Shown in pieces: positions 21,761-64,000 of a stretch of 64,000 bases of DNA; position 1 is the stretch's first letter, and every line of letters begins with the position of its first letter. Position numbers and translations under genes: made by a program. The notes under the pieces were generated by a model, which saw only the letters and a program-made list of their open reading frames with translations, had not been told where the DNA came from and did not search any database. The stretch comes from Candidatus Omnitrophota bacterium (GTDB lineage: Bacteria; Omnitrophota; Gorgyraeia; Zapsychrales; Zapsychraceae): contig DAOWGP010000034.1 in the NCBI GenBank assembly GCA_030637405.1, positions 1,358 through 65,357 of the forward strand. The letters are read 5' to 3'.

Positions 21761-23050
21761 CTAACTCGCCTCGGTAGTTTTTCCCTGGTTGTGATATTGG
21801 TTGCCAAGATTAAAATGTACCCGCGCGCTGTCCGCCGAGTGCTTCAGGGTCAATCGGTACAAACTTATCGAATCTCTCCAATAAGCATTCTGCTTAAATG
21901 TGAGTATCGAATAAAAACCAATCGGTAATGCCGCAAGAACAATGCTCAATACTTGAAATGGCCTTCTTTCATAGAGAAGAATGAATCCTTTAGCCGCGAT
22001 TAAAAATATTCCAATCGACGGAATATAAAGCCAATGTTCAGCCATGTAGGCATTAAGCGGATAAAGATTTGAACTTGGAAGTAAAGCCAGAACAAACCAC
22101 AGGACAGAGAAAAAAATAATTCCATAGCCCTCTTTCTTCCTGACTGAAAAAACATAAGCCAACACGAAAAATAATATGACCGCTCCGGCGATGGCTCGTT
22201 GGTCGTTAAAGGCAAAAGTCCCGTTACCGTATTCCATATGCAGATTAAAAGGTGCCATCAAAAGCCGTGTGTAATTCAACAGCGCCACGAAAAACCCGGG
22301 AACCCTTTGTATAAACGTCGTTGGAAAAGTCTCAGATAATAACGACTTTAACAACGTGCATCGTAAGACAATATAGATGAGGCTGAGGCTCGCGATCGGC
22401 AGAAATTGTTTGAACTTAAACCGTACCTTGAAGCTGTAATGATACAGGATCAGGAGAAGAGGCAAAATCAAGCTGTTTTCCCTTGATAAAAGGGACAAAA
22501 TATAACTCGCGCATGCAAGCAGCAGAAACGAAAACCGCTCTGCGCGCAGATATTTGATATAGAATATAAAACAAAGAGGCAGAAAAAGCGCCGTCAATGA
22601 ATCCGCACGTCCCGAAATATAGCTGACCACTTCGGTGCGCGCCGGATGCGCAACGAACAAAAGGCCGGCCAAAAGAGCCATCAACCAGTTGTCATAAAAA
22701 AGGATGGCCAGCCAAAAGACCGCCAGCGCGGCAAAAACATGAAAAACAACATTGCTGAGATGATATCCCCGAACATCAAGTTTCCAAAGCGAATAATCCA
22801 TCATGTAGGTGATCATCTGCGATGGACGGAAAAAATTGTATTTTTTTCCAATACCGACGCCAAACTTGGCTCCTGCATCGGGGGTAAACATCCTTGGGAG
22901 ATTAGACCAATCACGGATATAGGTATTATCCCTCACTAAAACATTATCGTCCCAAAGAAATTCGCCATTGAGGGAATTGCTGTAAACCATAAATCCAAGT
23001 AGGATTATTAAAACCGTACTGATAATTATGTTCGTTCTTTTTCTAAGCAT
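21761..23050 (-). CDS. Polytopic membrane glycosyltransferase-like protein (PMT/TMTC-like, GT39/DUF1736-type) with C-terminal TPRs, terminated by an in-frame TAG
   Basis: N-terminal WDDN motif in the first loop, about 10 predicted TM helices, then TPRs (VHFNLGNQYHNQGKTTEAS-stop). Confidence 0.65.
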   Translation of the reverse strand: MLRKRTNIIISTVLIILLGFMVYSNSLNGEFLWDDNVLVRDNTYIRDWSNLPRMFTPDAGAKFGVGIGKKYNFFRPSQMITYMMDYSLWKLDVRGYHLSNVVFHVFAALAVFWLAILFYDNWLMALLAGLLFVAHPARTEVVSYISGRADSLTALFLPLCFIFYIKYLRAERFSFLLLACASYILSLLSRENSLILPLLLILYHYSFKVRFKFKQFLPIASLSLIYIVLRCTLLKSLLSETFPTTFIQRVPGFFVALLNYTRLLMAPFNLHMEYGNGTFAFNDQRAIAGAVILFFVLAYVFSVRKKEGYGIIFFSVLWFVLALLPSSNLYPLNAYMAEHWLYIPSIGIFLIAAKGFILLYERRPFQVLSIVLAALPIGFYSILTFKQNAYWRDSISLYRLTLKHSADSARVHFNLGNQYHNQGKTTEAS

Positions 23051-28120: not shown

Positions 28121-29098
28121 TTAAAATATGACCTCTTTAATTTCAGCAATCGTTTTCTTAGCGATTACTTGTGCTTTCTTACGCCCTTCCTCCAGAATAT
28201 CTTGAATGCGGCCTTTATCTTTTTCAAGCTCAGAACGTCTCGCGCGTATGGGCGCTAAATAATCAATTAATATATCCGCTAATATCATCTTGCAATCTGT
28301 GCATCCTTTTTGCGCTTTTGTGCACCATTCGTGAACTTCATTTTTCTTTTCAGGCGCGAACACCTCATAATAACTACAGACATTACATTTATTCGGATGC
28401 CCGGGGTCGGCCAGCTTGATCCTCTTTGGATCCGTGAACATATTCTTTGCTTTTTTCTTTATTTCTTTCTCAGGGTCACTGAGATTGATCGCATTTTGAT
28501 AGCTTTTGCTCATCTTGCGCCCGTCAAGACCCAAAAGGCGCGGTGTTTTTGTTAAAATAGCCTCACAATCCGCGAAGAAATTCGTTTTGTAGATATGATT
28601 GAACCGCCGAGAAATCTCGCGCGTTAATTCGATGTGCGGCAACTGGTCTTCACCGATCGGCACAGCATTGGCCCTGTATAACATAATATCCGCCGCCTGA
28701 AGAACAGGATATCCAAGAAACCCGTAAGTTTGCAGATCTCTCGTTTTAATCTCGCGCAATTGTTCTTTATAGGTAGGATTGCGCTCCAGCCACCCCAAAG
28801 GAGTTATGCAGGAGAATATCATCTGAAGCTCTAAGTGCTCGGGAACATGGGATTGAACAAAAATAATTGATTTTTCCGGGTCAATCCCGTAGGCAATCCA
28901 ATCGATCGCCATATCCACGATATTTTCCTGGATTTCCTTGCTCTGCGCGTACTCCCCCATAAGCGCATGCCAATCAACAATCCCAAAAATGCAGTTGTAA
29001 TTATTTTGAAGTTCGAGCCAATTATTCAACGCGCCTACCAGGTGTCCAAGGTGCAGCTTTCCGGTCGGACGCATTGCAGAGAAAACTATTCTTTTCAT
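28121..29098 (-). CDS. trpS: Tryptophanyl-tRNA synthetase
   Basis: HLGH-type motif (PTGKLHLGHLVG) and KMSKS; 325 aa. Confidence 0.93.
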   Translation of the reverse strand: MKRIVFSAMRPTGKLHLGHLVGALNNWLELQNNYNCIFGIVDWHALMGEYAQSKEIQENIVDMAIDWIAYGIDPEKSIIFVQSHVPEHLELQMIFSCITPLGWLERNPTYKEQLREIKTRDLQTYGFLGYPVLQAADIMLYRANAVPIGEDQLPHIELTREISRRFNHIYKTNFFADCEAILTKTPRLLGLDGRKMSKSYQNAINLSDPEKEIKKKAKNMFTDPKRIKLADPGHPNKCNVCSYYEVFAPEKKNEVHEWCTKAQKGCTDCKMILADILIDYLAPIRARRSELEKDKGRIQDILEEGRKKAQVIAKKTIAEIKEVIF

Positions 29099-31566
29099 AA
29101 TGTCTGGACGATCGATTCTACTTCATAGGCTTCAATAATATCGCCTTGTTTATATTTATCAAAGCCATTTATTGTAACACCGCACTCCATCCCTTCCGAA
29201 ACATCCTTCACGTCATCTTTGAACCGCTTAAGCGACCCAATAGCCCCCGAGAAAATAATTTCCCCATCGCGGATAATATCCGCCTTGGCCTTCCGGTGAA
29301 CTTTTCCTTTTTGAACATAGCACCCTGCCACAATACCCTGCTTTGAAAGCTTGAATACTTCTCGAATTTCGATGCGGCTTAAGAAGTTTTTCTTGATCTT
29401 CGCTTCCAGAAGGCCTTCAAGCGCTTTTTTCATATCGTTAACCGCATCATAAATGATCCGGTATTCGCGGACATCGACAAGTTCTTTCTCGATCTCTTCT
29501 TTAGCTCTTAGATCAACTCCAACGTGAAAAGCAATAACGATCGCATTAGAAGCAACCGCCAAAAGCACATCTGAAGCGTTGACATCTCCAACAGCCGAAT
29601 GAATAAATTTTACTTTCACCTTATCACTCGGGATCTTTTCCAAAGAATCCTTCAGCGCCTCGAGTGATCCCTGGACATCAGTTTTTAAGATAACATTGAG
29701 CTCTTTAATGGCGCCTTCTTGCAATTGCGAATGCAGGTCCTCAAGCGTGATTCTGGGTGTAGCCCGTAATTTCTTATTCTTGATCTGGTCCTGACGTCTT
29801 TGCGTTATTTCTCTGGCCTGCTTTTCATCTTCAACAGCATAAAATAATTCACCGGCCTCCGGCACATTGGAAAGCCCAAGCATTTCTACCGGCATTGAAG
29901 GCCCGGCTCCTTTGATCAAACAGCCATGATCATCGAACATTGCGCGGATCTTCCCGTAAAACGGCCCTAAGACAACGATATCCCCTTCGTTGAGGGTTCC
30001 GCTTTGAATGATCAATGTTGTCACAGCGCCCTTGCCGTGACTTAAATGGGCTTCAACAACTATCCCTGATGCTTTCTTCTGGTCATTCGCCTTCAGTTCA
30101 AGCATTTCAGCCTCGAGAAGGATCAATTCAAGTAATTCGTCAACACCCTCACCGGTCACACCAGAAACCCCAGCAACAACTGTTTTACCACCCCAATCCT
30201 CAGACATTAGATCATGCTCTGAAAGTTGCTTTTTCACACGGTCCGAATCAGCATTTTTCTTATCCATTTTTGTTAAGGCCACAACAATAGGAACCTCAGC
30301 CGCGCGGGCATGATCGATCGCCTCCATAGTCTGGGGCATAAGCCCCTCATCGGCGGCAACAACCAAAACAACAATATCCGTAATATGCGCGCCTCGGGCA
30401 CGCATTGCGGTAAAAGCTTCGTGTCCCGGCGTATCAAGAAATGTAATACGTCCCTTTGGAACAGAAACCGAATAGGCTCCCATATGCTGCGTAATCCCGC
30501 CGTGCTCTCCGTCAGCAACCTTGCTTTTACGTATTTGATCTAAAAGCGTTGTCTTTCCATGATCAACGTGTCCCATAAAAGTAACTACGGGAGCTCTGGC
30601 CTTCAAAAGGCTTTCATCTTCCTCTTCTTTCTTATGGGTTTCAATAAGCTGCTGCTCTTGGGTTCGGATCTTCGCTAAATTAAAGCCAAAATCCTGCACA
30701 ATACGGCTAACAATATCCGCATCAAGAGCTTGATTGATATGACAAAAAGCTCCCATCTTCATCAAGTGCTTAAGCAAAACACTTGGCTTCTTCTGGAGTT
30801 TAACACTGAGATCTTTAACTGTAATCGGAACTTGAATTTCGATATCAGGCAAAGATTCATCACGTGAAACTTCTTTTACCGCTTCAGTAACAACTGGAGC
30901 TTCCTGCTCGGCTATCCCCGGAATACCATTTGAAGAAAGAGATGCTTTAACGTCATCTTTCTTTTCTGAAACAGCAGAAGTTCCCGTTTCACTTTTTGCC
31001 GCTAGAGAAGGTTTTTTGCGTTTTCGAGCCAGAGGTTTAAGCGTAATAACCGGCGATTTACTGATCTTCGGATGCGGTTTGAAAATATCCTTGCTAGACA
31101 CCCTTTTTACGATTGTTTTCTTCTTTACAGTTGTTCCTTTTTCTGTTGTTCTTACAGGTTTTGAAACAACTTTTTTCGTCTTGGGTTTACCTTTTACCTC
31201 TTTATCTTCAACAGCCTTTTTCTTCGTTTCTGCCGCCTTCTTTGTCTTCATCGCTGAAACCGGCTTTGCCTTGACAGACTTTTTTGTCGTTGCCGTTTTT
31301 TTCGCAACCTTCTTCTTTGCCTCACCTGTCATTTTTTTCTTTGTTTTCTTCGCAGATGCCTCTGCTTCGGCAGGCTTACCTACCGTTGTTCCTTTTTTTT
31401 GGGGCGTTTCTTTTTTACTTGTCTTGAGCTCGCTTTTGATAACAGAAACAACTGCCGCGCTAAGAACCTGCTCGCTATCCTTCGCTTTAAGTTTTAGAGA
31501 CCGTAATGCTTTAAGAACGGCATCACTGGTTATATTAAGATCTTTTGCTAGTTCTGATACTTTCAT
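29095..31566 (-). CDS. infB: Translation initiation factor IF-2
   Basis: Low-complexity K/A/T-rich N-domain; G domain [21 protein letters not shown]. Confidence 0.95.
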
Positions 31567-31572
31567 AAATTC

Positions 31573-32745
31573 CTATCCTTTAAGTAATGCTTTTGCCTCT
31601 TTGATCATCTTTTTGACTTTCACCTTACCAAAACCCTTTATTTGGATTAAATCATCCACACTGGCTTCAGCGATCTTCTCCAGCATATCGAACCCTGCTT
31701 CGGTCAATTGGGCGATAGCCTTCTCTCCAACACCGGAAAGATCAGCAATAGAAACTTCTTCCTCAGATTCTTCATCAGGCACTTCCTCTTCCTGAAGCTC
31801 TTTCCATTGTTCAAACGAGAATAAATTCAATTCCCATTCGACCAATTGGCTGGCTAAACGCACATTTTGCCCATGTTTGCCGATCGCCAAAGATAGCTGA
31901 TCATCGGCAACAATGATATTGGCTTTTTTATCATCATAATCAAGCTGGATCTGTGATATTTCGGCCGGAGAAAGCGCCGCTTGAATGTATTCTTTAATAT
32001 CCGATGCAAAACGGACAATATCAATCTTCTCTCCTTGAAGTTCTGAGACGATATTCTTAACGCGGGAACCACGCATTCCGACACATGCCCCCACGCAATC
32101 CACTTTTTCATCTTTTGAATAAACAGCGATCTTTGTCCTCTCGCCGACATCCCTGGAAATCGCCTTGATCTCAACGATCCCCTCAAAGATCTCAGGAACT
32201 TCTAATTGGAACAGACGTTTTATAAAATTAGGATGGGCTCTTGATAACATGATTTGTGGACCTCGATTTTCGCGCCGCACATCTAAAACATAAGCCCGAA
32301 TACGGTCTCCCTGCCGAAATTCTTCTTTTGAAGACTGTTCCTTTTTGGGAATATAAGCTTCAGTCTTTCCAAGGTCAACAATGATACTTCCCTTCTCGAA
32401 GCGATAAACGGCTCCGCTGATGATTTCTCCAATCCTTTCTTGATATTCACTAAACACAACATCTTTCTCGGCCTCGCGGATTCGCTGAATAACAACTTGC
32501 TTGGCCGTTTGGGCTGCGATACGCCCAAATTCACTCGAGCGGATCTCCTCATTGCCGGCATACGCAGTCAGCTTTCCAGTCTTGGTATCCAAAACAGCAC
32601 GGATATCTTCCTCTTTATCAACCGTCCATAACTTCCTGGCAGCCGATGCAACCGCCGCCTCAACAGCCTCTATGAGAATTTCTTTTTTGATGCCCTTATC
32701 ACGCTCCAACTGTTCGAGAATTCCTAATAATTCAACGCTTTCCAT
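31573..32745 (-). CDS. nusA: Transcription termination/antitermination factor NusA
   Basis: N-terminal domain, S1 and KH domains; 390 aa; between rimP and infB. Confidence 0.92.
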   Translation of the reverse strand: MESVELLGILEQLERDKGIKKEILIEAVEAAVASAARKLWTVDKEEDIRAVLDTKTGKLTAYAGNEEIRSSEFGRIAAQTAKQVVIQRIREAEKDVVFSEYQERIGEIISGAVYRFEKGSIIVDLGKTEAYIPKKEQSSKEEFRQGDRIRAYVLDVRRENRGPQIMLSRAHPNFIKRLFQLEVPEIFEGIVEIKAISRDVGERTKIAVYSKDEKVDCVGACVGMRGSRVKNIVSELQGEKIDIVRFASDIKEYIQAALSPAEISQIQLDYDDKKANIIVADDQLSLAIGKHGQNVRLASQLVEWELNLFSFEQWKELQEEEVPDEESEEEVSIADLSGVGEKAIAQLTEAGFDMLEKIAEASVDDLIQIKGFGKVKVKKMIKEAKALLKG

Positions 32746-32766
32746 AACCTCTTCCTTCCTTTATTT

Positions 32767-33222
32767 CTATTCGATCACCTGCACCGCTTTAGAAATAGAC
32801 CCTAACGGTACTGTGATGGTTTTATCGTTCGTTTTAATCAAAATTTTATCTTCATTCACTTCAACCACCTCGCCAAGATGCTCGACCTTTCCCTCAAGCG
32901 CATCCAAAAGATGAAACCTTACTTCCCGCCCTAATACCCGCAAAAAATCCTTTGATGTTTTAAGCGCCCTGTCCAATCCTGGAGACGATACTTCAACAAC
33001 ATAATTTCCGTCAAACCATTGCCTTTTTTCTATTTCACGATCAACTTTTTTGTTAATGAACGTGCATTCGCCAATAGTAATCCCACCAGGCCGGTCCGCA
33101 GCAATATCGATCACAACAGTATTCCCACGCTGCTTCACGTTTAATTCAACAATCTCTGCGGATAACTCTTCAATATATGGCATTATAAGAGCTTCAATCT
33201 GTTCTGTCAATTTATCCTGCAT
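32767..33222 (-). CDS. rimP: Ribosome maturation factor RimP
   Basis: 151 aa, conserved position upstream of nusA; VVEVSSPGLDRAL-like motif. Confidence 0.85.
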   Translation of the reverse strand: MQDKLTEQIEALIMPYIEELSAEIVELNVKQRGNTVVIDIAADRPGGITIGECTFINKKVDREIEKRQWFDGNYVVEVSSPGLDRALKTSKDFLRVLGREVRFHLLDALEGKVEHLGEVVEVNEDKILIKTNDKTITVPLGSISKAVQVIE

Positions 33223-34487
33223 ACCGATCCTGTCATCTCTGAGACTTTTTTCTTCACCTGGCCCTTTTCGGCCAGTATCACTTCGTTAGTCTCGCGGTCC
33301 TTGATCTCAACTTTACCCTCAGCAAGATTCCGCTTGCCAATCGTTATCCGGACCGGGATACCGATGAGATCAGCGTCATTGAACTTCCTTCCCGCCGTTT
33401 CTTCCCGGTCATCAACGAGGACCTCCAGGCCCTGCGCCGTTAAGTCCGCATAATACCGATCTGTAAGATCCTTGATTTCCTTATCCTCCTTGGATCCTTG
33501 TATCGGCAAGATCTCCACATCAAAAGGAGCGACCTGACGCGGCCATATAATCCCTTTATCATCATTATGCTTTTCAATGATCGCCGCAATCACCCGGCTA
33601 ACACCAATCCCATAACATCCCATAATGATCGGCTTCTGTTTTCCATCCTCATCAAGGAATTGCGCCCCTTGAGCCTGGCTATATTTCGTTCCCAATTGAA
33701 AGATGTGGCCTAATTCAATGGCGACCTGCGCTGTGAGATTTCCCTTTTTACATTTCGGACACGGTTTACCCTCCGCATTTTCTTCGCTCGCGCCCGCTTG
33801 AAAGCCACATGCGCTACAACTCACGACCGTATCTTCACCGATAGAAGCCGGGACCATAAATTCATGTGACACATCTCCGCCCATCGCCCCGGAATCAGCC
33901 TCTAAAATAACGGTTTTTAAACCACACCGCTGAAAAACATTTTTGTATGCCCCGTACATCAAGTCATAATTTTTCGCAAGCCCCTTCTTATCACGGTCAA
34001 AACTATACGCATCCTTCATAATAAATTCACAGGCCCGAACAATACCGAAACGTGCGCGTAATTCATCGCGGAATTTCGTTTGTATCTGATAGAGAACAAC
34101 CGGAAGCTGACGGTAAGACTGGATAAAATCTTTAACTAAATTCGTGATCACTTCTTCATGGGTCGGGCCTAAACACATTGGACGCTTACGATTATCTTCA
34201 AACTTGATCATAACATCCGCTAACACTTCATCACGCCCGGTTTGTTTCCAGAGATCAATCGGATGCAAGCATGGCAGAAAAAGTTCATTGGCGCCGATGG
34301 CATTCATTTCTTCACGGATTATGTCCTCGATACGTTTAAGAACTCTTAAACCCAGCGGAAGGTATGAATAAACACCCGAAGTAAGCATGTGCACCAGTCC
34401 CGCACGTAACAAAAGTTGGTGGCTGACCGCTTCTGTCCCAATTGGCGTTTCTTTGAGTGTCGGTATAAAATAATTTGACCATTTCAT
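33207..34487 (-). CDS. proS: Prolyl-tRNA synthetase, bacterial-type catalytic core, with a Cys4 insert in place of the INS editing domain
   Basis: Bacterial ProS N-terminus, class II motifs 2 and 3 (FRDE...EFIMKDAYSF; GCYGIGVSR). Only 426 aa, and CSACG...CPKC lies between motifs 2 and 3. Confidence 0.88.
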   Translation of the reverse strand: MKWSNYFIPTLKETPIGTEAVSHQLLLRAGLVHMLTSGVYSYLPLGLRVLKRIEDIIREEMNAIGANELFLPCLHPIDLWKQTGRDEVLADVMIKFEDNRKRPMCLGPTHEEVITNLVKDFIQSYRQLPVVLYQIQTKFRDELRARFGIVRACEFIMKDAYSFDRDKKGLAKNYDLMYGAYKNVFQRCGLKTVILEADSGAMGGDVSHEFMVPASIGEDTVVSCSACGFQAGASEENAEGKPCPKCKKGNLTAQVAIELGHIFQLGTKYSQAQGAQFLDEDGKQKPIIMGCYGIGVSRVIAAIIEKHNDDKGIIWPRQVAPFDVEILPIQGSKEDKEIKDLTDRYYADLTAQGLEVLVDDREETAGRKFNDADLIGIPVRITIGKRNLAEGKVEIKDRETNEVILAEKGQVKKKVSEMTGSVCRIN

Positions 34488-34499
34488 ATCGATAATATC

Positions 34500-35768
34500 C
34501 TATTCATTAAAAAATCCCTCTGGCAATTTAACCATGCGTTTGTGGAATTTTTGCATGCAGGAAGGCTGTTTCTTATCCATAACCCATTCTCCAAGAATTT
34601 CACCCGCCTCGCTCATCCCGCTTTGCTTAAACTGAAAGATGTCATTTATAACAATCTTGTCAGTCGCATTGTCAAAATAGACATCGGAAACAGCTGTCAC
34701 GCGACGAACTCCGTCCATAAATAATTCCACGTGGACAATAAGATCAATTGATTTTGCAATAATCTTCTGGATTTCAAGAGTCTCAAGCTGAATGCCGGTC
34801 ATCAGCATGATCGTAAGCATACGGTTAAAACAATCTTCTGTCGTCTCCGAGTGAACAATCGCCAATGAACCGCTATGCCCGCTGCTAATAGACTGAATCA
34901 GATCGAGCAATTCCTCACCACGAATTTCACCGATAATGACACGGTCTGGACGCATTCGCAGAGAATTGACAAAAAGCTCCCGCATTGAAATTTCCCCTTT
35001 CCCTTCGATATTTGCGGGTTTCGATGCCAGACTAACCACATGGTCCTGAACCAAACGTAATTCGGGGGTATCTTCAATTGTAATAATACGCTCATGAGAA
35101 GGAATGTGGCGTGAAAACACATTGAGCAGCGTTGTTTTACCTGCACCTGTTGAACCGCAAAAAATAACGTTACATTTTACTTTCATCGCCGCAATCAGCA
35201 AAGTCGCGATCTTTTTATCAAGCGTTTTCAGTCCCAACAGATCATCCACGGCTGCAATCTCGTCACTAAATTTTCGAATCGTCATAATCGGCCCCATTAG
35301 CGAGCAAGGCGGAAGAATAATATTAACCCGCGCTCCATCTTCTAATGAAAAATCGACATAAGGCGAAGATTCATCGACGCGTTTATTTGATCCGGATCCG
35401 GCTAGGATTTTCTGAACAGTATGAAAAAGTTCAGGATTGCTCTCAAACTTTATATCCGATTTGTAGATGCGTCCTTCACGTTGTATATAAACTTGTTTGG
35501 CCCCGTTGACCATAATTTCTGAAATGGTGGGGTCCTCCATGAGAGGCCGCAGAGGCCCCATGCTTATCGCCGCGCTGACAAGCGTGCGGATAATTTCACT
35601 GCGCTCCTCAAGATCTAATTGAACATGATGCCTGTAACAGAAATCAGAAATAGATTGATTGACAAAATTTCTTAACTGATCTTCGTTCATGGTATCTTTA
35701 ACTTTAAGGAAATCCGTTTCCTTAATAAGATACCGGTTCATCCTCTCTCTTAAATCTTCTTCGCTCAT
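34500..35768 (-). CDS. CpaF/TadA-like (type II/IV secretion family) ATPase, orphan
   Basis: Walker A FCGSTGAGKTTLLN, IEDTPEL, His box; 422 aa. No other Tad/pilus genes in this window. Confidence 0.8.
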   Translation of the reverse strand: MSEEDLRERMNRYLIKETDFLKVKDTMNEDQLRNFVNQSISDFCYRHHVQLDLEERSEIIRTLVSAAISMGPLRPLMEDPTISEIMVNGAKQVYIQREGRIYKSDIKFESNPELFHTVQKILAGSGSNKRVDESSPYVDFSLEDGARVNIILPPCSLMGPIMTIRKFSDEIAAVDDLLGLKTLDKKIATLLIAAMKVKCNVIFCGSTGAGKTTLLNVFSRHIPSHERIITIEDTPELRLVQDHVVSLASKPANIEGKGEISMRELFVNSLRMRPDRVIIGEIRGEELLDLIQSISSGHSGSLAIVHSETTEDCFNRMLTIMLMTGIQLETLEIQKIIAKSIDLIVHVELFMDGVRRVTAVSDVYFDNATDKIVINDIFQFKQSGMSEAGEILGEWVMDKKQPSCMQKFHKRMVKLPEGFFNE

Positions 35769-35807
35769 TTTAGGCCTGCCTTATTATAGGTTAAAATAGA
35801 GACTCGT

Positions 35808-37202
35808 TTACGGGAACATTTTTCTAACTTGAGTAAACCAACCGCTAATGTTATCAATCCAACCAAAACGCGAGAAATCACTGTAAAACACAAACAGCGC
35901 GAGCAAAATGATCAAGCCAAATCCCAAACGGGCAATGTATTCATCAATTTTTGGGGGCAATGGCTTTCCTCTTACTTTCTCGATGCCAAATAAAAAAAGA
36001 TGGCCTCCATCCAAAGGGATTACCGGCAATAAATTGAAAATGGCAAGACTGGCGCTGATCACACCAAGGATAAATAGCAAATGCGATACCCCCTCTTGTG
36101 CCGCACCTTTAACGATATAAAATATTCCGACGGGACCTGTTACAGATTCGCGCGCTGATTTTGACCCAATGACCATCTGATACAGAGACTCGTAAGTTAA
36201 CTGTGTAATGTACACTAACTCTTCACCGGAGTGAACAAGTGAAGCCCAAATTCCAAATTTGTATAGGTCAAGTTCCTGTTGCGGTCCAATACCAATTTTA
36301 CGAATCTTAACTGTCTGCCCATTCTCATCAGTATGCTCATCAATCCTCGGCTTAATAGCCTTTACTAGAATTTGGCCATCACGCACAAGCTTCAATACAA
36401 TCTGTTTTCCTGTCGAATCTGCAACCGCCCCTTTTATATCCGTCCAACTTGTAATTTCTTGATTATCAATTTCAATGATTCTGTCACCGCCTTGTAATCC
36501 CGCGTTTTCTGCAGGAAATTCCTCAACAAGCCCGCCAATAACGTTCGACATATTGTCTATGCCTAAATCACGAATCATTCTAGGCCGCCCAACCAAATTA
36601 GGTTTTTCCGTTATCTCCGGAATAACAGTCAATGTTGTCTCTTTTCCATCACGCAAAACTGTTATTTCAACTCTTTTCGGATTCTCCCCTTCGAGCTTCC
36701 ATTGAAGGTTTAGCCATCCGTGAACTTCTCTGGAGTCAACGGCAATAATTTTATCACCAGCCCGTAAACCGGCCACTTGAGCCGGCCCGCCATCAACGAG
36801 TTCGGCGATCGTTGTTGATTGTCCCGGATAGCCGATCATAAAAACAAAAATGAAACTGATATACGCCAGGAGGAAATTAACAACTGGGCCATTTAAAACG
36901 ACTAGCGATCGATGCCCAATCGGTTTTGAATAAAATTCTCCAGAGGTGCCTTTACACTCCATGCGATCATCCCCTGCCATTTTGACATACCCACCCAGAG
37001 GAATCGCATTGATCATATAGGTTGTTCCATTATAGACCTTGGAAAAAAGCGTGGGACCAAAGCCTAATGCAAATCGCTTGACATCAACACCAAGACGTTT
37101 AGCTGTAATAAAATGTCCCCACTCGTGAACTATGATGAGTACACTTAAAACAGCGACGAATACAACAACACTTTGAATATTTGAAACAACACTTCCGATC
37201 AT
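35808..37202 (-). CDS. rseP: RIP zinc metalloprotease RseP (site-2 protease)
   Basis: HEWGHFITAKR (HExxH), PDZ domains, C-terminal LDGG motif (IPLDGGHL). Confidence 0.92.
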   Translation of the reverse strand: MIGSVVSNIQSVVVFVAVLSVLIIVHEWGHFITAKRLGVDVKRFALGFGPTLFSKVYNGTTYMINAIPLGGYVKMAGDDRMECKGTSGEFYSKPIGHRSLVVLNGPVVNFLLAYISFIFVFMIGYPGQSTTIAELVDGGPAQVAGLRAGDKIIAVDSREVHGWLNLQWKLEGENPKRVEITVLRDGKETTLTVIPEITEKPNLVGRPRMIRDLGIDNMSNVIGGLVEEFPAENAGLQGGDRIIEIDNQEITSWTDIKGAVADSTGKQIVLKLVRDGQILVKAIKPRIDEHTDENGQTVKIRKIGIGPQQELDLYKFGIWASLVHSGEELVYITQLTYESLYQMVIGSKSARESVTGPVGIFYIVKGAAQEGVSHLLFILGVISASLAIFNLLPVIPLDGGHLFLFGIEKVRGKPLPPKIDEYIARLGFGLIILLALFVFYSDFSRFGWIDNISGWFTQVRKMFP

Positions 37203-37207
37203 AATCT

Positions 37208-38362
37208 TTACCTAAAAATGAGCCTTTCCGTTTCCTGCCGGGTCCATTGATCCGTCTCTAATATTTTCTTAAGCGTTGGGTTCTTTATTGTTCTATGCCG
37301 AAGGACAATTTTCTCAACAATCCGGTAAATATCTGAAAACTTGATTTTCTTGTTGAGAAAAGCATCGACGGCTACTTCGTCAGCCGCGTTCAATACACTC
37401 GGCAATGTTCCTCCTCGGCGTCCAACGTGGATCGATAAGGCTAAAGCGGGAAACTTATTTGTATCCGGCTTCTTGAAATTAAACTGTCCTAATTCAAAGA
37501 AATTCGTCGGCTTTAGCCCTGATTCCAATCTCTCCGGATAAGTCAGCGCATATTGGATCGGCAAACGCATGTCCGTTATGCTCAACTGGGCGATAATCGA
37601 ACCGTCTTTGAACTCTGCCATCGAGTGAATGATCGCCTCGGGATGAACAACAACTTGGATCTGGTCTATCGAGAGCTGAAATAAGACTTTCGTTTCGATA
37701 ATTTCAAACCCCTTATTCATCAGCATGGCAGAATCAACCGTGATCTTCTTTCCCATCTTCCAACGCGGATGATTGAGAATCTGATTGACAGACAGATGAT
37801 CAAATCGCGACTTCGGCACATCCAATAAAGCCCCGCCTGAAGCCGTTAAGTGGATCTTTTTAAGTTCACCGCGGTTTCTGCCTTCTAAACATTGAAAGAT
37901 CGCGCTTTGCTCGCTATCAACAGGAATAATCGTCGCTTTATGCCGCTTCGCTTCGCTGATAAGAATATCCCCGGCAATCACCAGAGCTTCTTTGTTAGCC
38001 GGAGCAACTGTTTTTCCAGCACGTATCGCGCTTAAAAATGGACCTAAAGCAGCGCTCCCGCGCATAGCAATAACAACAATATCAACACATTTTAACGCAA
38101 CAAGGCTTTCAAGGTCTTCTTCGACATTTAGAATGCGCGTCTGGCGCGCTCCTAGATGTTTCTTAAGGTATTCGACACCCTTTGTGCTGACGGCAACATG
38201 CGTTGGAGAAAATTTTCTGATCTGCCGTTCAAGCAGCTTAAAGTTATTATACGCTGTCAATCCAACAACTTTAAATTTGTTTGAAAAGCGCTCAATAACT
38301 TTTAAAGTGCTGATCCCAATTGACCCCGTTGATCCGAGGATAACAACTTTTTTAAGCCCCAT
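37208..38362 (-). CDS. dxr: 1-deoxy-D-xylulose 5-phosphate reductoisomerase
   Basis: VVILGSTGSIGISTL N-terminal NADPH motif; 384 aa. Confidence 0.93.
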   Translation of the reverse strand: MGLKKVVILGSTGSIGISTLKVIERFSNKFKVVGLTAYNNFKLLERQIRKFSPTHVAVSTKGVEYLKKHLGARQTRILNVEEDLESLVALKCVDIVVIAMRGSAALGPFLSAIRAGKTVAPANKEALVIAGDILISEAKRHKATIIPVDSEQSAIFQCLEGRNRGELKKIHLTASGGALLDVPKSRFDHLSVNQILNHPRWKMGKKITVDSAMLMNKGFEIIETKVLFQLSIDQIQVVVHPEAIIHSMAEFKDGSIIAQLSITDMRLPIQYALTYPERLESGLKPTNFFELGQFNFKKPDTNKFPALALSIHVGRRGGTLPSVLNAADEVAVDAFLNKKIKFSDIYRIVEKIVLRHRTIKNPTLKKILETDQWTRQETERLIFR

Positions 38363-38365
38363 TTT

Positions 38366-39184
38366 TTATTGCATTAAAACCTGTGCCATATAAAAATAAA
38401 ACGCCGGTGCAGAAAACAAAAGACTGTCGATCGCATCTAAAACACCGCCTAAGGCCGGTAATAATTTTCCTGAGTCTTTAACATTACAATCACGTTTAAT
38501 GAGAGATTCGGACATGTCACCCAGTTGCCCGATCCCGCCAAAAAAGAGACCGATTAAGACGACGTGAGTAAGAGAGAAATTGATTTCAGCCGGGAGCAAA
38601 GACCGTGCAAGTATTGCCGCGACAGCGCTGAAAATAAAACTCCCGATACTCCCTTCAATTGTTTTATTTGGGCTGACTCGCGGTAACAAGGGGTGTTTTC
38701 CAATCTTGCTGCCGACCAATAACGCGCCCATATCCCCGCATTTTGTGATCAAAAGAATGAAACCAAGGAGCTTGATACCCTCTACACCGGGAAGAAGAAC
38801 CCTAATCTTAAGTAAGAAGCTAAAGAACCATGAGACATACAGAACACCGAAAAGTGTTGTTGAAATTCCAACAATCGCGTTGGTATTATCTCTGCGGTTT
38901 AATTGTAGAATAAAGATCAAAAGAAGAACTAGGACGATGAAAAGCAGTTCCCATCTTTTTGTCGGCTCAAACTGGAAAAAAATCGATAAAGGAATCAATA
39001 CCCCTAATATGATTCCGGTATAACTATAGATCGGAATGCCTTTTTTCTTGATCAAATAAAAGAATTCATAAAGCCCGCCAATCGTTAAAGCCAAAATAAC
39101 TAAAATACACACCCATTGGTTCAATACGGCAAAAAGACTTAACAAGATCATAATTATTGAACTTACCAATCGATCCTTACTCAT
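38366..39184 (-). CDS. cdsA: Phosphatidate cytidylyltransferase
   Basis: Polytopic membrane protein with a variant C-terminal CTP-transferase signature (SLIKRDCNVKDSGKLLP...DAIDS); conserved position. Confidence 0.8.
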   Translation of the reverse strand: MSKDRLVSSIIMILLSLFAVLNQWVCILVILALTIGGLYEFFYLIKKKGIPIYSYTGIILGVLIPLSIFFQFEPTKRWELLFIVLVLLLIFILQLNRRDNTNAIVGISTTLFGVLYVSWFFSFLLKIRVLLPGVEGIKLLGFILLITKCGDMGALLVGSKIGKHPLLPRVSPNKTIEGSIGSFIFSAVAAILARSLLPAEINFSLTHVVLIGLFFGGIGQLGDMSESLIKRDCNVKDSGKLLPALGGVLDAIDSLLFSAPAFYFYMAQVLMQ

Positions 39185-39185
39185 T

Positions 39186-39920
39186 CTATTGTTCCTCTGT
39201 AACTAGTTTTCCGAAACGTCTTTCCCGTTTTTGATAATCAAGAATCGCTTTTTTGAATTCTTCTGTATTAAAATCCGGCCAGAGTTTTTTTGTAAAATAA
39301 AATTCCGCATAAGACAGCTGCCATAAAAGAAAATTGCTGATCCGCTGCTCACCAGAAGTTCGAATTAAAAGGTCCGGATCAGGCAGCCCGTTTGTATAAA
39401 GGGACTGGCTTATCGTATCCTCACAAATATCCTCGATATTTAATTGTCCCGATTGAACTGACTTAGCAATGCTTTTAACCGCGTTAATGATCTCGACACG
39501 CGCCCCGTAATTAAACGCTAAATTGACAATCAATCCTGTATTATTTTTTGTTTCATCAATAACTTTCGCGATCGTTTCAAAAAGAGTTTTTGGAACCCTT
39601 TGTTTTTGACCGATCATTCTCAGCTGAATATTATCATTCTTTAACTTCTGGAGTTTCTTATCAAGAACTGCCGTGAGTATATTCATAATAAGTGATACTT
39701 CATTTTCTGGCCGGTCCCAATTCTCAGTTGAGAACGTAAAAAGAGTGACCACTTCAATGCCGATTTCCTGCGCCGCATCAATGATCTCTTCAACGCGCCG
39801 GACACCTTCAATGTGGCCCTTGGCTCTTGGAAGTGATTGCCCCTCTGCCCAACGGCCGTTACCATCCATGATAATGGCAACATGCCTTGGTATTATTGTT
39901 TTATCGATTTGCTCTGACAT
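39186..39920 (-). CDS. uppS: Undecaprenyl pyrophosphate synthase
   Basis: PRHVAIIMDGNGRWA motif; 244 aa. Confidence 0.93.
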   Translation of the reverse strand: MSEQIDKTIIPRHVAIIMDGNGRWAEGQSLPRAKGHIEGVRRVEEIIDAAQEIGIEVVTLFTFSTENWDRPENEVSLIMNILTAVLDKKLQKLKNDNIQLRMIGQKQRVPKTLFETIAKVIDETKNNTGLIVNLAFNYGARVEIINAVKSIAKSVQSGQLNIEDICEDTISQSLYTNGLPDPDLLIRTSGEQRISNFLLWQLSYAEFYFTKKLWPDFNTEEFKKAILDYQKRERRFGKLVTEEQ

Positions 39921-40074: not shown

Positions 40075-40419
40075 TTACATCGGCAATACAAGCGTTTGCA
40101 ATTCCTTGATCTTTTTATCAAGATTCTCTTTAATTTCTACAGCTTTATCTAAACGGGTTTTCAGATCATTATTATATGCCTTGGTTTTCTCAAGAAACCC
40201 TTCGATTTGACCAATTTTATCCTGAGCTCTTTTCAACTCAGCTTTTAACGAGATGACTTTCACCTTAGATTTCTGAAAATTTTCTTCAGAAACCAAACGT
40301 TTATAACGTTCGCCATTTAGCTGCTCCTGCACATAACTCGCATCTTGACTATAACGTATGGCTAAGCCACAACTTAAAACAAGCAACACAATCACGAATC
40401 CGATTAATACAGTTCTCAT
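40075..40419 (-). CDS. Coiled-coil lipoprotein, hypothetical
   Basis: Signal peptide with lipobox VLSC, remainder predicted coiled-coil. Confidence 0.55.
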   Translation of the reverse strand: MRTVLIGFVIVLLVLSCGLAIRYSQDASYVQEQLNGERYKRLVSEENFQKSKVKVISLKAELKRAQDKIGQIEGFLEKTKAYNNDLKTRLDKAVEIKENLDKKIKELQTLVLPM

Positions 40420-42541: not shown

Positions 42542-43324
42542 TCACCTTGCAAGAAAATACCCCAATCCGATACCAACCGATAAAAACAAAGCGGCTGATA
42601 TCCCTTTGTAATACAGAATCATTTTCATCTTTTTTCTTGCTCGGCCTAAAAAAAGAATCACAATCCAAGCAGTGATTAAAGGCAAGTTCGCCGTAACACT
42701 ATAATAAAAAAAAGATAAAAACACAAACTTCGCGTTACCACCACTCATTAAATATGAATGAACAATAAAAATGTACTCGTCCTGAGGATATATCGAGCTG
42801 CACAAAGTTACGATAAAGCCGCTGCCCATGGCGAAGAGAATAAATCTTACAAAAATAAAAAATTTCTTTACTTTACCCGCTGGTTTTTCATCGCTGAGGG
42901 TTTCAAAAAAAGCCGGTACCTTGTACTTGAACCGTCCTGTATCAAAATATTTTTCGTATTGCCATCTATCACTAATATTTAAAAAGCCGAGAACAAGAAA
43001 AACTGCCGCAAGCAGAAAGTAAAGAATGCGAAGAGTGTGCATAACCACCGGGGTGGCAATAATATAGTCAAAAAATCCGGCTGCCAACCCAAAATGTGTT
43101 AACCCGGAGAACAGGATGAAAAGCAGGCCTAACCAAAAAACACGCTTTTGGGTGTATCCGACAAGCGAAAGATACATGATAAGGATCAGGGCCGATGCTA
43201 ACCCGCAAGGGTTGATACTGTCGCCAATACCAGCCGTGAAGGCTGGAAATAACGCAAACGAAGGGTATTGTTTTAAATTGTAACGATCCATGTAATTACT
43301 TAGACCTTCAGGAGTTTTATGCAT
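42542..43324 (-). CDS. Polytopic membrane protein, hypothetical; weak resemblance to CcdA/DsbD-type thiol-disulfide transporters
   Basis: About 7 TM helices; Cys in TM1 (SINPCGLASAL) and a second TM Cys (TLCSSIYP). Family not recognised with confidence. Confidence 0.4.
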   Translation of the reverse strand: MHKTPEGLSNYMDRYNLKQYPSFALFPAFTAGIGDSINPCGLASALILIMYLSLVGYTQKRVFWLGLLFILFSGLTHFGLAAGFFDYIIATPVVMHTLRILYFLLAAVFLVLGFLNISDRWQYEKYFDTGRFKYKVPAFFETLSDEKPAGKVKKFFIFVRFILFAMGSGFIVTLCSSIYPQDEYIFIVHSYLMSGGNAKFVFLSFFYYSVTANLPLITAWIVILFLGRARKKMKMILYYKGISAALFLSVGIGLGYFLAR

Positions 43325-62492: not shown

Positions 62493-63353
62493 CTACGCTC
62501 TCGGATGAGCTTTATTGTAGACCGCTTTTAGACGATCCGTTGTCACATGCGTATATATTTGGGTCGTCGAAAGATTAACATGCCCTAACAGCTCCTGAAC
62601 CGAACGCAGATCAGCCCCGCGGTTCAGCAAATGCGTCGCAAATGAATGCCGCACGACATGCGGCGAAACATTCGCAGTCATACCCACCGTCATGATGTGT
62701 TTATTAACAATGTTGCGCACGCTCCTATCAGAAAGCCGCGTTCCGTTCTTATTTAGAAATAACGTGTTCGATTTCTGTTTTCTGTCTTTAAGATAATTAC
62801 GAATGGCGTCGAGCGCCTTATCCCCAATGGGGATCAGCCGCTCCTTCTTTCCCTTTCCGGAAACTTTCGTGATATTGCCGATCAAGTCCACGTTATTGAT
62901 ATTTAAGCCGACAAGTTCGCTGACGCGCATTCCCGTGCTGTAGAGAGTTTCAAGAATCGCCCTATCTCTTTTTCCTGAAATTTTCTCAAGCGATGGCGCT
63001 TCGATAAGTTTGGCCATTTCATCCTCGCTTAAGAATTTCGGAAGCATCTTGTCGAGTTTCGGCGACATTAATAAAACGGCCGGATTTTCGCAAATAAACC
63101 CTTCACGATGAAGAAATTTAAAAAAACTTCTTAATGAAGATAGCTTTCTGGTAAGGGTACGCGGACGATAGTGTTTTGCGCGCAACCGCGCAAGGAATCT
63201 CCGCAGGAAAAGATAATCGACCTTTTCAACAGGAGTTTGGCCAATAAATTGAAGAAAATCCTCTAAATCAATGCGGTAATTGAGAATCGTATGCGGAGAG
63301 TAATTCTTTTCGATCTCCAGGTAAGAAATGAATTTATCAAGATAGCGGTTCAT
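62493..63353 (-). CDS. xerC: Tyrosine recombinase XerC/XerD family
   Basis: N-terminal SAM-like domain (SPHTILNYRIDLEDFL); catalytic R...HxxR...Y (HVVRHSFATHLL, LGHVNLSTTQIYTHV). Confidence 0.88.
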   Translation of the reverse strand: MNRYLDKFISYLEIEKNYSPHTILNYRIDLEDFLQFIGQTPVEKVDYLFLRRFLARLRAKHYRPRTLTRKLSSLRSFFKFLHREGFICENPAVLLMSPKLDKMLPKFLSEDEMAKLIEAPSLEKISGKRDRAILETLYSTGMRVSELVGLNINNVDLIGNITKVSGKGKKERLIPIGDKALDAIRNYLKDRKQKSNTLFLNKNGTRLSDRSVRNIVNKHIMTVGMTANVSPHVVRHSFATHLLNRGADLRSVQELLGHVNLSTTQIYTHVTTDRLKAVYNKAHPRA

Positions 63354-63415
63354 AATCGGTAAATAGTGAATGGTAAATCATTAATAGCAGATTATCGTGC
63401 AGGCGATTTTCTTGA

Positions 63416-63706
63416 TCAATCAATTTTTCTTGATATTTGCTTATAAATATCTTTTCGATGGCCAATCGTTAATATTATCACAAGGATTTCTTTATGGAAA
63501 ACTCGATATATAATCCTGTAGTCTCCAGAGCGATATGATAAGAAACCTTTTAATTCTCTAGTAAGATGCTTACCTATTTCCGAATTTTCCGCGATCCGCC
63601 CGATGGATTCTTTAATTTGACGTTTTTTCTTTAAGGAGAGCTTATCAATATCTTTCTTTGCTTCTTTTGTATAGACAATTTTAAACATCTTTAAAGACAT
63701 CCTCAT
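63416..63706 (-). CDS. Type II toxin, ParE/RelE family
   Basis: 96 aa, basic, C-terminal YRIIYRV...ILVIILTIGHRKDIY pattern; overlaps the upstream antitoxin gene. Confidence 0.8.
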   Translation of the reverse strand: MRMSLKMFKIVYTKEAKKDIDKLSLKKKRQIKESIGRIAENSEIGKHLTRELKGFLSYRSGDYRIIYRVFHKEILVIILTIGHRKDIYKQISRKID

Positions 63707-63932
63707 GAGAATATAAATCGCCGTTTTTAATATCCTCTTCCGCCCTTAAAATCGCCTGTAACATTTTTTGATCCGCTTTAATCTCTAATGTTTCCAGTTC
63801 TTCCGGAGAAAGCAAAACCGCTTCCGGTTTCCCATTTCTTGTTATAATTAAATGCTTTTCCACATTCGAAATTTTTTTAATCAATTCAGGAAGTTTTCCT
63901 CTCACCTCTGATATTGACATAATATAATCCAT
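63681..63932 (-). CDS. Type II antitoxin, Phd/YefM family (start refined to the ATG 7 nt after a GGAGGTGA SD)
   Basis: VRGKLPELIKKISNVEKHLIITRNGKPEAVLLSPEELETLE is the Phd/YefM fold signature; antitoxin precedes and overlaps the toxin. Confidence 0.82.
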   Translation of the reverse strand: MDYIMSISEVRGKLPELIKKISNVEKHLIITRNGKPEAVLLSPEELETLEIKADQKMLQAILRAEEDIKNGDLYSHEDVFKDV

Positions 63933-63953
63933 TTTTTTCACCTCCATCTAAAG

Positions 63954-63971
63954 TGTACAATATTTTGTACA
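63954..63971 (-). promoter_or_regulatory. Palindromic operator-like site upstream of the antitoxin gene
   Basis: tgtacaa-tatt-ttgtaca is a perfect 7-bp inverted repeat, 7 nt upstream of the SD. This is the typical position for autoregulation by the TA complex. Confidence 0.5.
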
Positions 63972-64000
63972 ACCTTACAAGACTTTTTATTTGTAAATAA

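Follow-up and report, generated by a model that had tools for sequence, protein, structure and literature searches.

An orphan CpaF-like ATPase gene kept directly upstream of proS in Omnitrophota and its possible role as a motor acting in trans

CpaF-type ATPases drive assembly of the Tad (type IVc) pilus by turning an inner-membrane platform of the PilC/TadB/TadC type. The genes for PilT and PilU often lie apart from those for pilus assembly. For the Omnitrophota, a "type II secretion-like" locus has been described upstream of giant genes (West-Roberts et al. 2023), and published surveys scored Tad by TadB, TadC, RcpA, TadZ and Flp, with the ATPase not analysed (Seymour et al.). Here we describe a CpaF-like ATPase gene that lies between rseP and proS in a stretch of 64 kb (the window) of the genome of a Candidatus Omnitrophota metagenome-assembled genome (MAG), order Zapsychrales. 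An identical protein is present as NCBI MCK5013709.1, "CpaF family protein", in the Candidatus Omnitrophota MAG GCA_023136835.1. CpaF-like ATPases and Tad systems of Omnitrophota are already known; what is new is a clade-specific, orphan branch of CpaF that resides in an operon of essential genes and is without one arginine finger. A full-text literature search for Omnitrophota and CpaF found nothing relevant. We refer to this branch as S1, and to two further groups of CpaF-like proteins of Omnitrophota, likewise defined in this analysis, as S2 and S3.

The position of the S1 gene was found to be conserved. The best 80 loci from GTDB species-representative genomes were collected and then searched with the window's own genes, and gene families were clustered across them. 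Metagenomes were scanned with an S1 profile, which gave at least two further S1 loci and, for use as a control, many canonical Tad loci. The order uppS-cdsA-dxr-rseP-(ispG)-ATPase-proS-rimP-nusA-infB-trpS was present in 21 of the 80 GTDB loci and in at least two metagenome loci, i.e., in at least 23 loci other than the window, with ispG (GcpE) placed before the ATPase gene outside Zapsychrales (locus L068 is cut short upstream of the ATPase); no ispG was found anywhere in the window. The gene directly after S1 was proS in all of the 21 related loci that extend past the end of the ATPase gene. Most lineages have a short spacer between the two genes, and where they seem to overlap, over-long open reading frame (ORF) calls are the cause. 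More than 120 database proteins were 65-89% identical to the window ATPase, nearly all of them 420-437 residues long; those with a named organism all come from Omnitrophota.

The nearest species-level GTDB relative is RIFCSPHIGHO2_02_FULL_52_10 (locus L007), which belongs to the class Velamenicoccia (GTDB Koll11), order Zapsychrales, family Zapsychraceae (Seymour et al. 2023, Table S1). The identities to this locus were 79% for the ATPase, 79% for proS, 68% for dxr and 74% for uppS, and those to the distant locus L077 were 41% for the ATPase, 59% for proS, 48% for dxr and 44% for rseP. Within a given locus the ATPase diverges roughly as fast as dxr and uppS. All S1 loci that could be traced taxonomically in the table of Seymour et al. 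are from Velamenicoccia and cover at least three orders: Zapsychrales (Zapsychraceae and Fredricksoniimonadaceae), Duberdicusellales (Duberdicusellaceae and family 4484-171) and Gygaellales (Profunditerraquicolaceae). Loci L028, L008, L030, L046 and L014 carry the NCBI labels "Elusimicrobia", "uncultured Planctomycetales" or "bacterium", yet have the Omnitrophota-specific synteny; L028 is assigned to Omnitrophota (Fredricksoniimonadaceae) by Seymour et al.

Across these loci the S1 gene is a fixed, vertically inherited member of the block in at least three orders of Velamenicoccia, and an old conserved trait. An earlier note, made from the letters of this DNA, had described the ATPase gene as inserted into a widely conserved block. 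The block is as described and the rseP-X-proS arrangement is conserved in relatives, but the insertion is not a local one. A recent insertion, mobile-element cargo or a functionless decaying remnant would fit with the absence of the gene from the block in other phyla (as in the established order uppS-cdsA-dxr-rasP-proS of Bacillus subtilis) and with a slightly lower GC content at 34-36 kb (0.416-0.426). This GC content lies within the range of the window (0.39-0.49), however, the reading frame is intact, the many close homologues have the same length, the position is identical across orders, and no repeats, integrase or tRNA are found nearby; the window as a whole contains no tRNA genes. The conservation data therefore contradict a recent insertion or a dead gene, to which we give a negligible probability, and recent insertion or horizontal transfer is ruled out by the conserved synteny, the ordinary composition and the lack of mobile-element genes or tRNAs at the site.

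The window ATPase matches the Pfam family T2SSE (PF00437) with 159 bits (E 1.3e-46) and contains a Walker A motif, an Asp box, a Walker B motif (RVIIGEIRG, residues 276-284) and a His box. This agrees with the earlier note, which had read the gene as a 422-residue ATPase of the type II/IV secretion family and quoted its Walker A and IEDTPEL motifs; both were recovered, the latter within the Asp box (Table 1). Its likeness to CpaF/TadA was borne out as well. The nearest solved structures by sequence (phmmer) are those of CpaF, 8RKD, 8RJF and 9E24, with an E-value of 4e-80 over residues 38-394. An AlphaFold2 model was built on 34 homologues and had a mean predicted local distance difference test (pLDDT) score of 77 and a predicted template modelling (pTM) score of 0.62, with low confidence only for residues 231-260, which include the pore loop. 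Foldseek ranked CpaF (8RJF, 8RKD and 9E24) first for this model, with E-values of about 1e-33 over 412-425 columns and template modelling scores of 0.6-0.7, followed by FlaI, archaeal GspE, VirB11 and PilT. The model has the CpaF architecture of a three-helix bundle, an N-terminal domain (NTD) and a catalytic domain and resembles solved CpaF over its full length, and its N-terminus is without a long disordered extension.

None of the NCBIfam models reached its cut-off with the window ATPase; the best was TIGR03819 (TadA-type) with 263 bits against a cut-off of 373. CpaF proteins from Tad loci scored 336-341 bits on this model and likewise fell below the cut-off, which makes TIGR03819 ill-suited for deciding CpaF membership. 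A non-secretion ATPase family, which the earlier note had considered possible, was excluded: only T2SSE-type models match strongly, and the matches to ABC and AAA models are marginal P-loop matches.

Distance-based neighbour-joining trees with 100 bootstraps were made from datasets of 86 and 73 sequences, the latter with more paralogues. S1 formed its own clade within the CpaF family in both, with bootstrap values of 68% (86 sequences) and 90% (73 sequences), and the Zapsychrales subgroup within S1 was found in 100%. We then compared 21 S1 sequences with 56 canonical CpaFs from many phyla, using the numbering of Caulobacter crescentus CpaF and residue roles as given in PMC11300603 and PMC12019362, which derive from C. 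crescentus CpaF structures together with an AlphaFold3 model in which the motor is complexed with its platform. Residues K287, E312, E357, R359, H382, D215, R223, R347, E331 and G334 are kept in 21 of 21 S1 sequences, as are both histidines of the His box; R326 is a lysine in most of them. Loop 8 and the pore loop are predicted to touch the T2SSF domains of the platform proteins (PMC12019362). Both elements are present in S1: the pore loop mostly reads NIEGKGEI, as it does in the window ATPase, and retains E331 and G334, and loop 8, G-R-R-x-D in CpaF, has (K/R)RxDE conserved in the S1 consensus. In the window ATPase loop 8 reads GSNKRVDESSP, with a two-residue insertion specific to Zapsychrales. 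The contact itself would follow from the model. S1 is predicted to be a catalytically competent, hexamer-forming motor ATPase of the CpaF type.

Table 1. Coordinates of the S1 ATPase gene, its sequence elements, its neighbours and related loci (window positions unless a locus is named; residue equivalents refer to C. crescentus CpaF)
Feature	Location	Strand	Remarks
S1 ATPase gene	34500..35768	-	422 aa, ATG start; CpaF-like, T2SSE family; three-helix bundle, NTD and catalytic domain
N-terminal three-helix bundle, aa 1-70	35559..35768	-	AlphaFold2 helices aa 3-17, 29-47 and 53-69; Foldseek match to CpaF is full-length
Loop 8 equivalent GSGSNKRVDESSP, aa 124-136	35361..35399	-	Predicted platform-contact element; role per PMC12019362
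DFSLEDGAR, aa 139-147	35328..35354	-	D215 and R223 equivalents kept; NTD arginine finger R217 replaced by Ser141
Walker A GSTGAGKTT, aa 205-213	35130..35156	-	Motif match
Asp box TIEDTPEL, aa 230-237	35058..35081	-	E232 = CpaF E312
Extended pore loop ASKPANIEGKGEIS, aa 248-261	34986..35027	-	E331 and G334 equivalents kept; R326 replaced by K250
LRMRPDRVIIGEIRG, aa 270-284	34917..34961	-	Interchain arginine finger R271 = R347; Walker B E281 and R283 = E357 and R359
His box SGHSGSLAIVH, aa 296-306	34851..34883	-	S1 signatures: NTGH to SSGH; T380 to Ile304
Same-strand block uppS-cdsA-dxr-rseP-S1-proS-rimP-nusA-infB-trpS	28121..39920	-	Ten genes, gaps -16 to +39 nt
rseP, upstream neighbour	35808..37202	-	464 aa, two PDZ domains
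proS, downstream neighbour	33207..34487	-	426 aa, without INS editing domain
Spacer ATPase-proS, 12 nt	34488..34499	-	ATPase stop TAG (34500-34502) inside TAGGAT, Shine-Dalgarno-like for proS
Spacer rseP-ATPase, 39 nt	35769..35807	-	AAGGCAGG upstream of ATG
S1 loci, Zapsychrales group	L007-L012, L028, L088		ATPase 57-79% identical to that of the window; rseP before ATPase
S1 loci, other orders	L013, L014, L015, L017, L021, L025, L030, L036, L042, L046, L077, L079, L084, L087		ATPase 40-49% identical; ispG (GcpE) before ATPase
S2 paralogue between proS and rimP	L021:8341-9597; L025:8529-9758; L030:8530-9759; L077:8527-9792		Four S1 loci
S3 before thrS	L139:1449-2525; L167:10001-11071; L171:10001-11074; L172:10001-11074		Near dnaA in several Omnitrophota genomes

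Canonical CpaF genes in the 80-locus clustering lie in the order RcpC/CpaB-TadZ/CpaE-CpaF-TadB-TadC, often together with a secretin gene. The S1 gene is not encoded within such a tad/cpa locus (tadZ/cpaE, tadB, tadC, rcpC/cpaB, secretin). The remaining genes of the window are housekeeping and lipopolysaccharide genes only. A tblastn search of the 64 kb with TadB, TadC, TadZ, CpaB, secretin and the proteins of Omnitrophota Tad-like loci matched the ATPase itself and nothing else, and no prepilin, Flp or class III signal motifs were found in any frame of the 64 kb. We counted Tad neighbours in both collections for loci flanked by 3 kb or more in both directions. Among the matches listed, a Tad component was present within 5 kb in 0 of 15 S1 loci as compared with 71 of 74 non-S1 CpaF homologues, and TadB or TadC in none of the 15 as compared with 64 of the 74. 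The partnerless context is unusual for the CpaF family. This upholds two statements of the earlier note, namely that pilin, TadB/C, CpaE and secretin genes are missing from the 64 kb and that the orphan state is out of the ordinary. One canonical-type CpaF without Tad neighbours was seen in a Nitrospirota MAG (L081:3942-7272), 557 nt after a lysyl-tRNA synthetase gene; its place next to a class II synthetase gene may be due to chance.

The closest relatives of S1 were found in and around the Tad-like loci of Omnitrophota. Six such loci (L063, L066, L070, L085, L173 and L174) have the order RcpC-secretin-TadZ::CpaF, with a Rotamase-type peptidyl-prolyl isomerase (PPIase) gene upstream of RcpC in L063, L173 and L174, where annotated; a seventh, L058, is a short contig with only an ATPase pair. 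The TadZ::CpaF fusion (about 722 aa) forms a large conserved family, and all eight Tad-like loci sampled, these seven among them, carry their own copy. A second, short ATPase of about 355 aa (ATPase2) follows directly after TadZ::CpaF in L058, L063, L173 and L174 (incomplete in L174). The PPIase-RcpC-secretin-TadZ::CpaF-ATPase2 locus matches the type described by West-Roberts et al. 2023. In L173 (7801-15876) about ten small pilin-like ORFs with N-termini of the K-A-Q-S-x-x-E-Y type follow the ATPases. The CpaF call for genome 231 in the KEGG Orthology (KO) tables of the source data of Seymour et al. may correspond to the ATPase pair on L058.

ATPase2 is nested in S3, a family of more than 120 homologues of about 357 aa that is without the three-helix bundle and comes from Omnitrophota wherever the organism is named; S3 and the short ATPase grouped with a bootstrap value of 83%, and S1 and S3 formed a clade with 79% in the neighbour-joining trees. 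The S3-type proteins have in common with S1 the loss of R217 and a change of T380 to V or I, with T380V in the small Tad-locus ATPase. S3/ATPase2 appear to be the only functional anchor for S1.

We favour, with a probability of roughly 0.45, the reading that S1 is an active motor, probably an auxiliary one, working in trans on a platform whose gene lies elsewhere. Its engine and platform-gripping surfaces are kept under purifying selection across orders, which argues that the role is still platform-dependent, and an auxiliary motor is favoured because the nearest relatives can be second ATPases within the Omnitrophota locus that resembles Tad and type II secretion systems (T2SS). S1 would have become established immediately before proS in a shared ancestor of three or more Velamenicoccia orders and have passed down vertically from there. 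It would dock in trans on the platform of a Tad/T2SS-like apparatus, the presumed machine, and serve as an additional or specialised motor beside the TadZ::CpaF of that locus, by analogy with the unlinked PilT/PilU paralogues of type IVa pili. Its placement in the proS operon would provide steady expression at housekeeping level, and would imply no function in common with the neighbours.

Several observations weigh against this reading. Searching through NCBI accession blocks gave no case of S1 and a Tad-like locus in one genome, and the closest pair came from two different assemblies. Any platform, pilin or secretin gene of the genome studied here would lie outside the 64 kb. The platform is not pinned down, because no T2SSF gene is recognisable beside the ATPases of the Omnitrophota Tad-like loci (L173:7801-15876; L063:8447-12404): the ORFs of 439, 481 and 526 aa found there gave no T2SSF match, and those of 439 and 481 aa gave no Pfam match at all and have at most one transmembrane-like segment. 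The support for the S1+S3 clade is moderate and comes from neighbour-joining trees only. Lastly, residues of the motor itself have changed. At the position of the NTD arginine finger R217, 21 of 21 S1 sequences have S, C or M and 56 of 56 canonical CpaFs have Arg, so that of the three arginine fingers R223 (NTD) and R347 (interchain) are present and R217 is absent. Likewise, T380 of the His box is I or V and R424 is L or Q in all 21, both being invariant in the 56 canonical proteins. The loss of R217 together with the changes at T380 and R424 means that the catalytic cycle or the partner of S1 may differ.

A further change affects the NTGH sequence, invariant in the 56 canonical CpaFs, which is (S/C/N)SGH in 21 of 21 S1 proteins. 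We define S1 by these four signature changes together with a position directly upstream of proS in dxr-rseP-(ispG)-X-proS, and the window ATPase has all of them. On the evidence of the trees and of these residues S1 is a new, Omnitrophota-specific branch of the CpaF family with signature residues of its own.

The same changes, clade-wide at four sites invariant in CpaF and including the lost arginine finger, would fit a CpaF engine that has ceased to serve a pilus and drives another membrane or cytoplasmic process with a new partner, for instance export linked to giant surface proteins, DNA uptake or envelope remodelling. For a long stretch of evolution S1 has had no type IV filament genes beside it, and of the CpaF-like proteins tested it scored lowest on TIGR03819. 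Such a change of function sits less well with the two loops predicted to grip T2SSF, which are among the best conserved parts of S1, and with the occurrence of the closest relatives, S3 and ATPase2, in Tad-like loci; moreover, no conserved neighbour points to an alternative partner. We consider it possible but doubtful.

Intact catalytic residues and platform-contact loops would also fit a relocated sole motor, i.e., S1 as the only motor of an ATPase-less Tad or type IV filament locus elsewhere in the genome, a scenario that the earlier note had raised. TadB/C and RcpA were reported in 74 of 116 Velamenicoccia species, TadA not being analysed (Seymour et al.). Among the best 80 GTDB loci, no S1-bearing genome also gave a canonical CpaF locus; this is a weak argument because canonical Omnitrophota CpaFs score near the cut-off of that list. 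Against a sole motor, the sampled Omnitrophota Tad-like loci all carry their own TadZ::CpaF, four of them with the second ATPase, and S1 (L036) and the Tad ATPase pair (L058) occur in the same family, 4484-171. In addition, the S1 substitutions fall at sites that are invariant in working Tad motors. A sole relocated motor is therefore not favoured, as the sampled Tad-like loci own ATPases and S1 is found in the same family-level lineage, and we hold it to be unlikely.

The neighbours of S1 in the window were identified with Pfam and NCBIfam models as uppS, cdsA, dxr, rseP (TIGR00054, 307 bits), proS (PRK09194, 591 bits), rimP and nusA, and infB and trpS through Pfam matches of called genes, which confirms the order uppS-cdsA-dxr-rseP and proS-rimP-nusA-infB given in the earlier note. 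The spacing within the block (in nt) is uppS-1-cdsA-3-dxr-5-rseP-39-ATPase-12-proS-(-16)-rimP-21-nusA-6-infB-(-4)-trpS. No terminator-like sites were found in the two spacers flanking the ATPase gene, and promoter-like matches were not commoner than in shuffled sequence. Given the stop codon within TAGGAT before the proS start and the lack of a terminator in the spacers, the S1 gene is likely to be co-transcribed and translationally coupled with proS. All long ORFs of the window that are likely to be genes lie on the minus strand, and the GC skew is negative throughout; an operon inferred from context is weakened by so long a co-oriented stretch with very short spacers.

RseP has 464 aa and two PDZ domains in this genome as compared with about 355-363 aa in the other orders (L013-L087). 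The prolyl-tRNA synthetase (ProRS) matches bacterial ProRS models in two stretches and is of the short form (about 414-439 aa) in all related loci. A perfect sigma-70 consensus (TTGACA, 17 nt, TATAAT; 12/12) is present at 33182-33210 (-), at the 3' end of proS and within the predicted start of rimP. It may be a promoter of rimP-nusA-infB, in which case the true rimP start is possibly located further downstream.

The recurrence of CpaF-like genes next to class IIa aminoacyl-tRNA synthetase genes raises the question of a functional or regulatory tie to synthetase or translation operons, as opposed to hitch-hiking. Besides S1, which directly precedes proS wherever this could be seen, S2 lies between proS and rimP in four loci, where proS is flanked by two CpaF-like ATPases. 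S2 is canonical at the S1 signature sites and has a His at the interchain finger R347 in 4 of 4 sequences. S3 was found as an orphan in four of five contexts, in the order coaC-tRNA(Cys, Leu, Val)-S3-thrS-infC-rpmI-rplT-pheST with an S3-thrS spacer of -20 to +6 nt, and the canonical orphan CpaF of the Nitrospirota MAG follows lysS. The pattern was seen post hoc, however, and S1 and S2 are possibly not independent events. In compact, largely single-stranded genomes any gene has housekeeping neighbours, synthetase genes may just have leaders in which insertions do no harm, and the remaining S3 context has no thrS but precedes a gene for a TPR protein. We know of no mechanism that joins the CpaF ATPase family to synthetases, and we rate such a tie as very improbable indeed. 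A wider version of the idea, in which S1 (before proS), S2 (after proS) and S3 (before thrS-infC) are all hard-wired into class IIa synthetase/translation operons and work without a conventional pilus machine, we rate as very improbable. If true, it would mean, for example, that host-dependent nanobacteria have an export or attachment motor tied to translational capacity, or a novel role for these ATPases connected with synthetases or tRNA.

Elsewhere in the window, an OmpA-like gene just upstream of uppS is followed by a conserved ORF of 114 aa without a Pfam match (40075-40419, -), and this pair is conserved in Zapsychrales loci. A second conserved ORF without a Pfam match (42542-43324, -) encodes 260 aa. 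The gene at 21761-23050 (-) encodes a hydrophobic-looking protein of 429 aa with a TPR-like C-terminal end and no confident Pfam match, and coincides with an outlier in AT skew (+0.27) at 22-23 kb. Positions 62493-63353 encode a XerC-like integrase, a related contig (L006) also carries a Phd/YefM-ParE toxin-antitoxin pair in the corresponding region, and the GC content falls to 0.348 over the last kilobase of the window; positions 62493-64000 may lie at the margin of a mobile or variable region.

The Omnitrophota are ultra-small bacteria that occur widely and probably live as predators or parasites, and their machines for attachment and secretion are considered central to this way of life. They hold a small family of CpaF-derived motors: TadZ::CpaF and the short second ATPase in the giant-gene locus, and two orphan branches in operons of essential genes. 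As a dedicated second motor, S1 would give Tad-type systems, otherwise regarded as running on a single bifunctional motor, a counterpart of PilT; with a new partner, it would exemplify the reuse of a pilus motor. In these genomes an automatic annotation as "CpaF family protein" should not be taken to indicate a Tad pilus.

Compared to known systems, S1 is most similar to CpaF/TadA, which gave the best sequence and fold match and with which it has in common the Walker A and B motifs, the Asp and His boxes, R223, R347, D215, loop 8 and the pore-loop residues. It differs from CpaF/TadA in having no nearby Tad genes, no R217 and no disordered N-terminal region, in the changes at T380, NTGH and R424, and in scores below the NCBIfam cut-offs. 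FlaI, archaeal GspE and VirB11 belong to the same superfamily and have the same fold of NTD and catalytic domain, but the window ATPase stays below the cut-offs for FlaI, VirB11 and TrbB (173 bits against 550 for NF058587, 196 against 250 for TIGR02788 and 154 against 305 for TIGR02782). ATPase2/S3 resemble S1 as its sister clade, in being specific to Omnitrophota, in the lost R217 and the V or I at T380, and in that some are orphans before a class IIa synthetase gene; they differ in their length of about 355 aa, the missing three-helix bundle, a divergent pore loop and loop 8, a retained R424 and another genome position. With PilT/PilU the likeness would be one of use only, as second motors that act in trans on the same platform and are often encoded away from the assembly genes. 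By sequence and fold S1 is distinct from them (TIGR01420 48 bits against a cut-off of 319, no AIRNLIRE motif, and a Foldseek E-value of about 1e-9 as compared with 1e-33 for CpaF), although PilT, with a DFS-type motif, also has no arginine at the position equivalent to R217.

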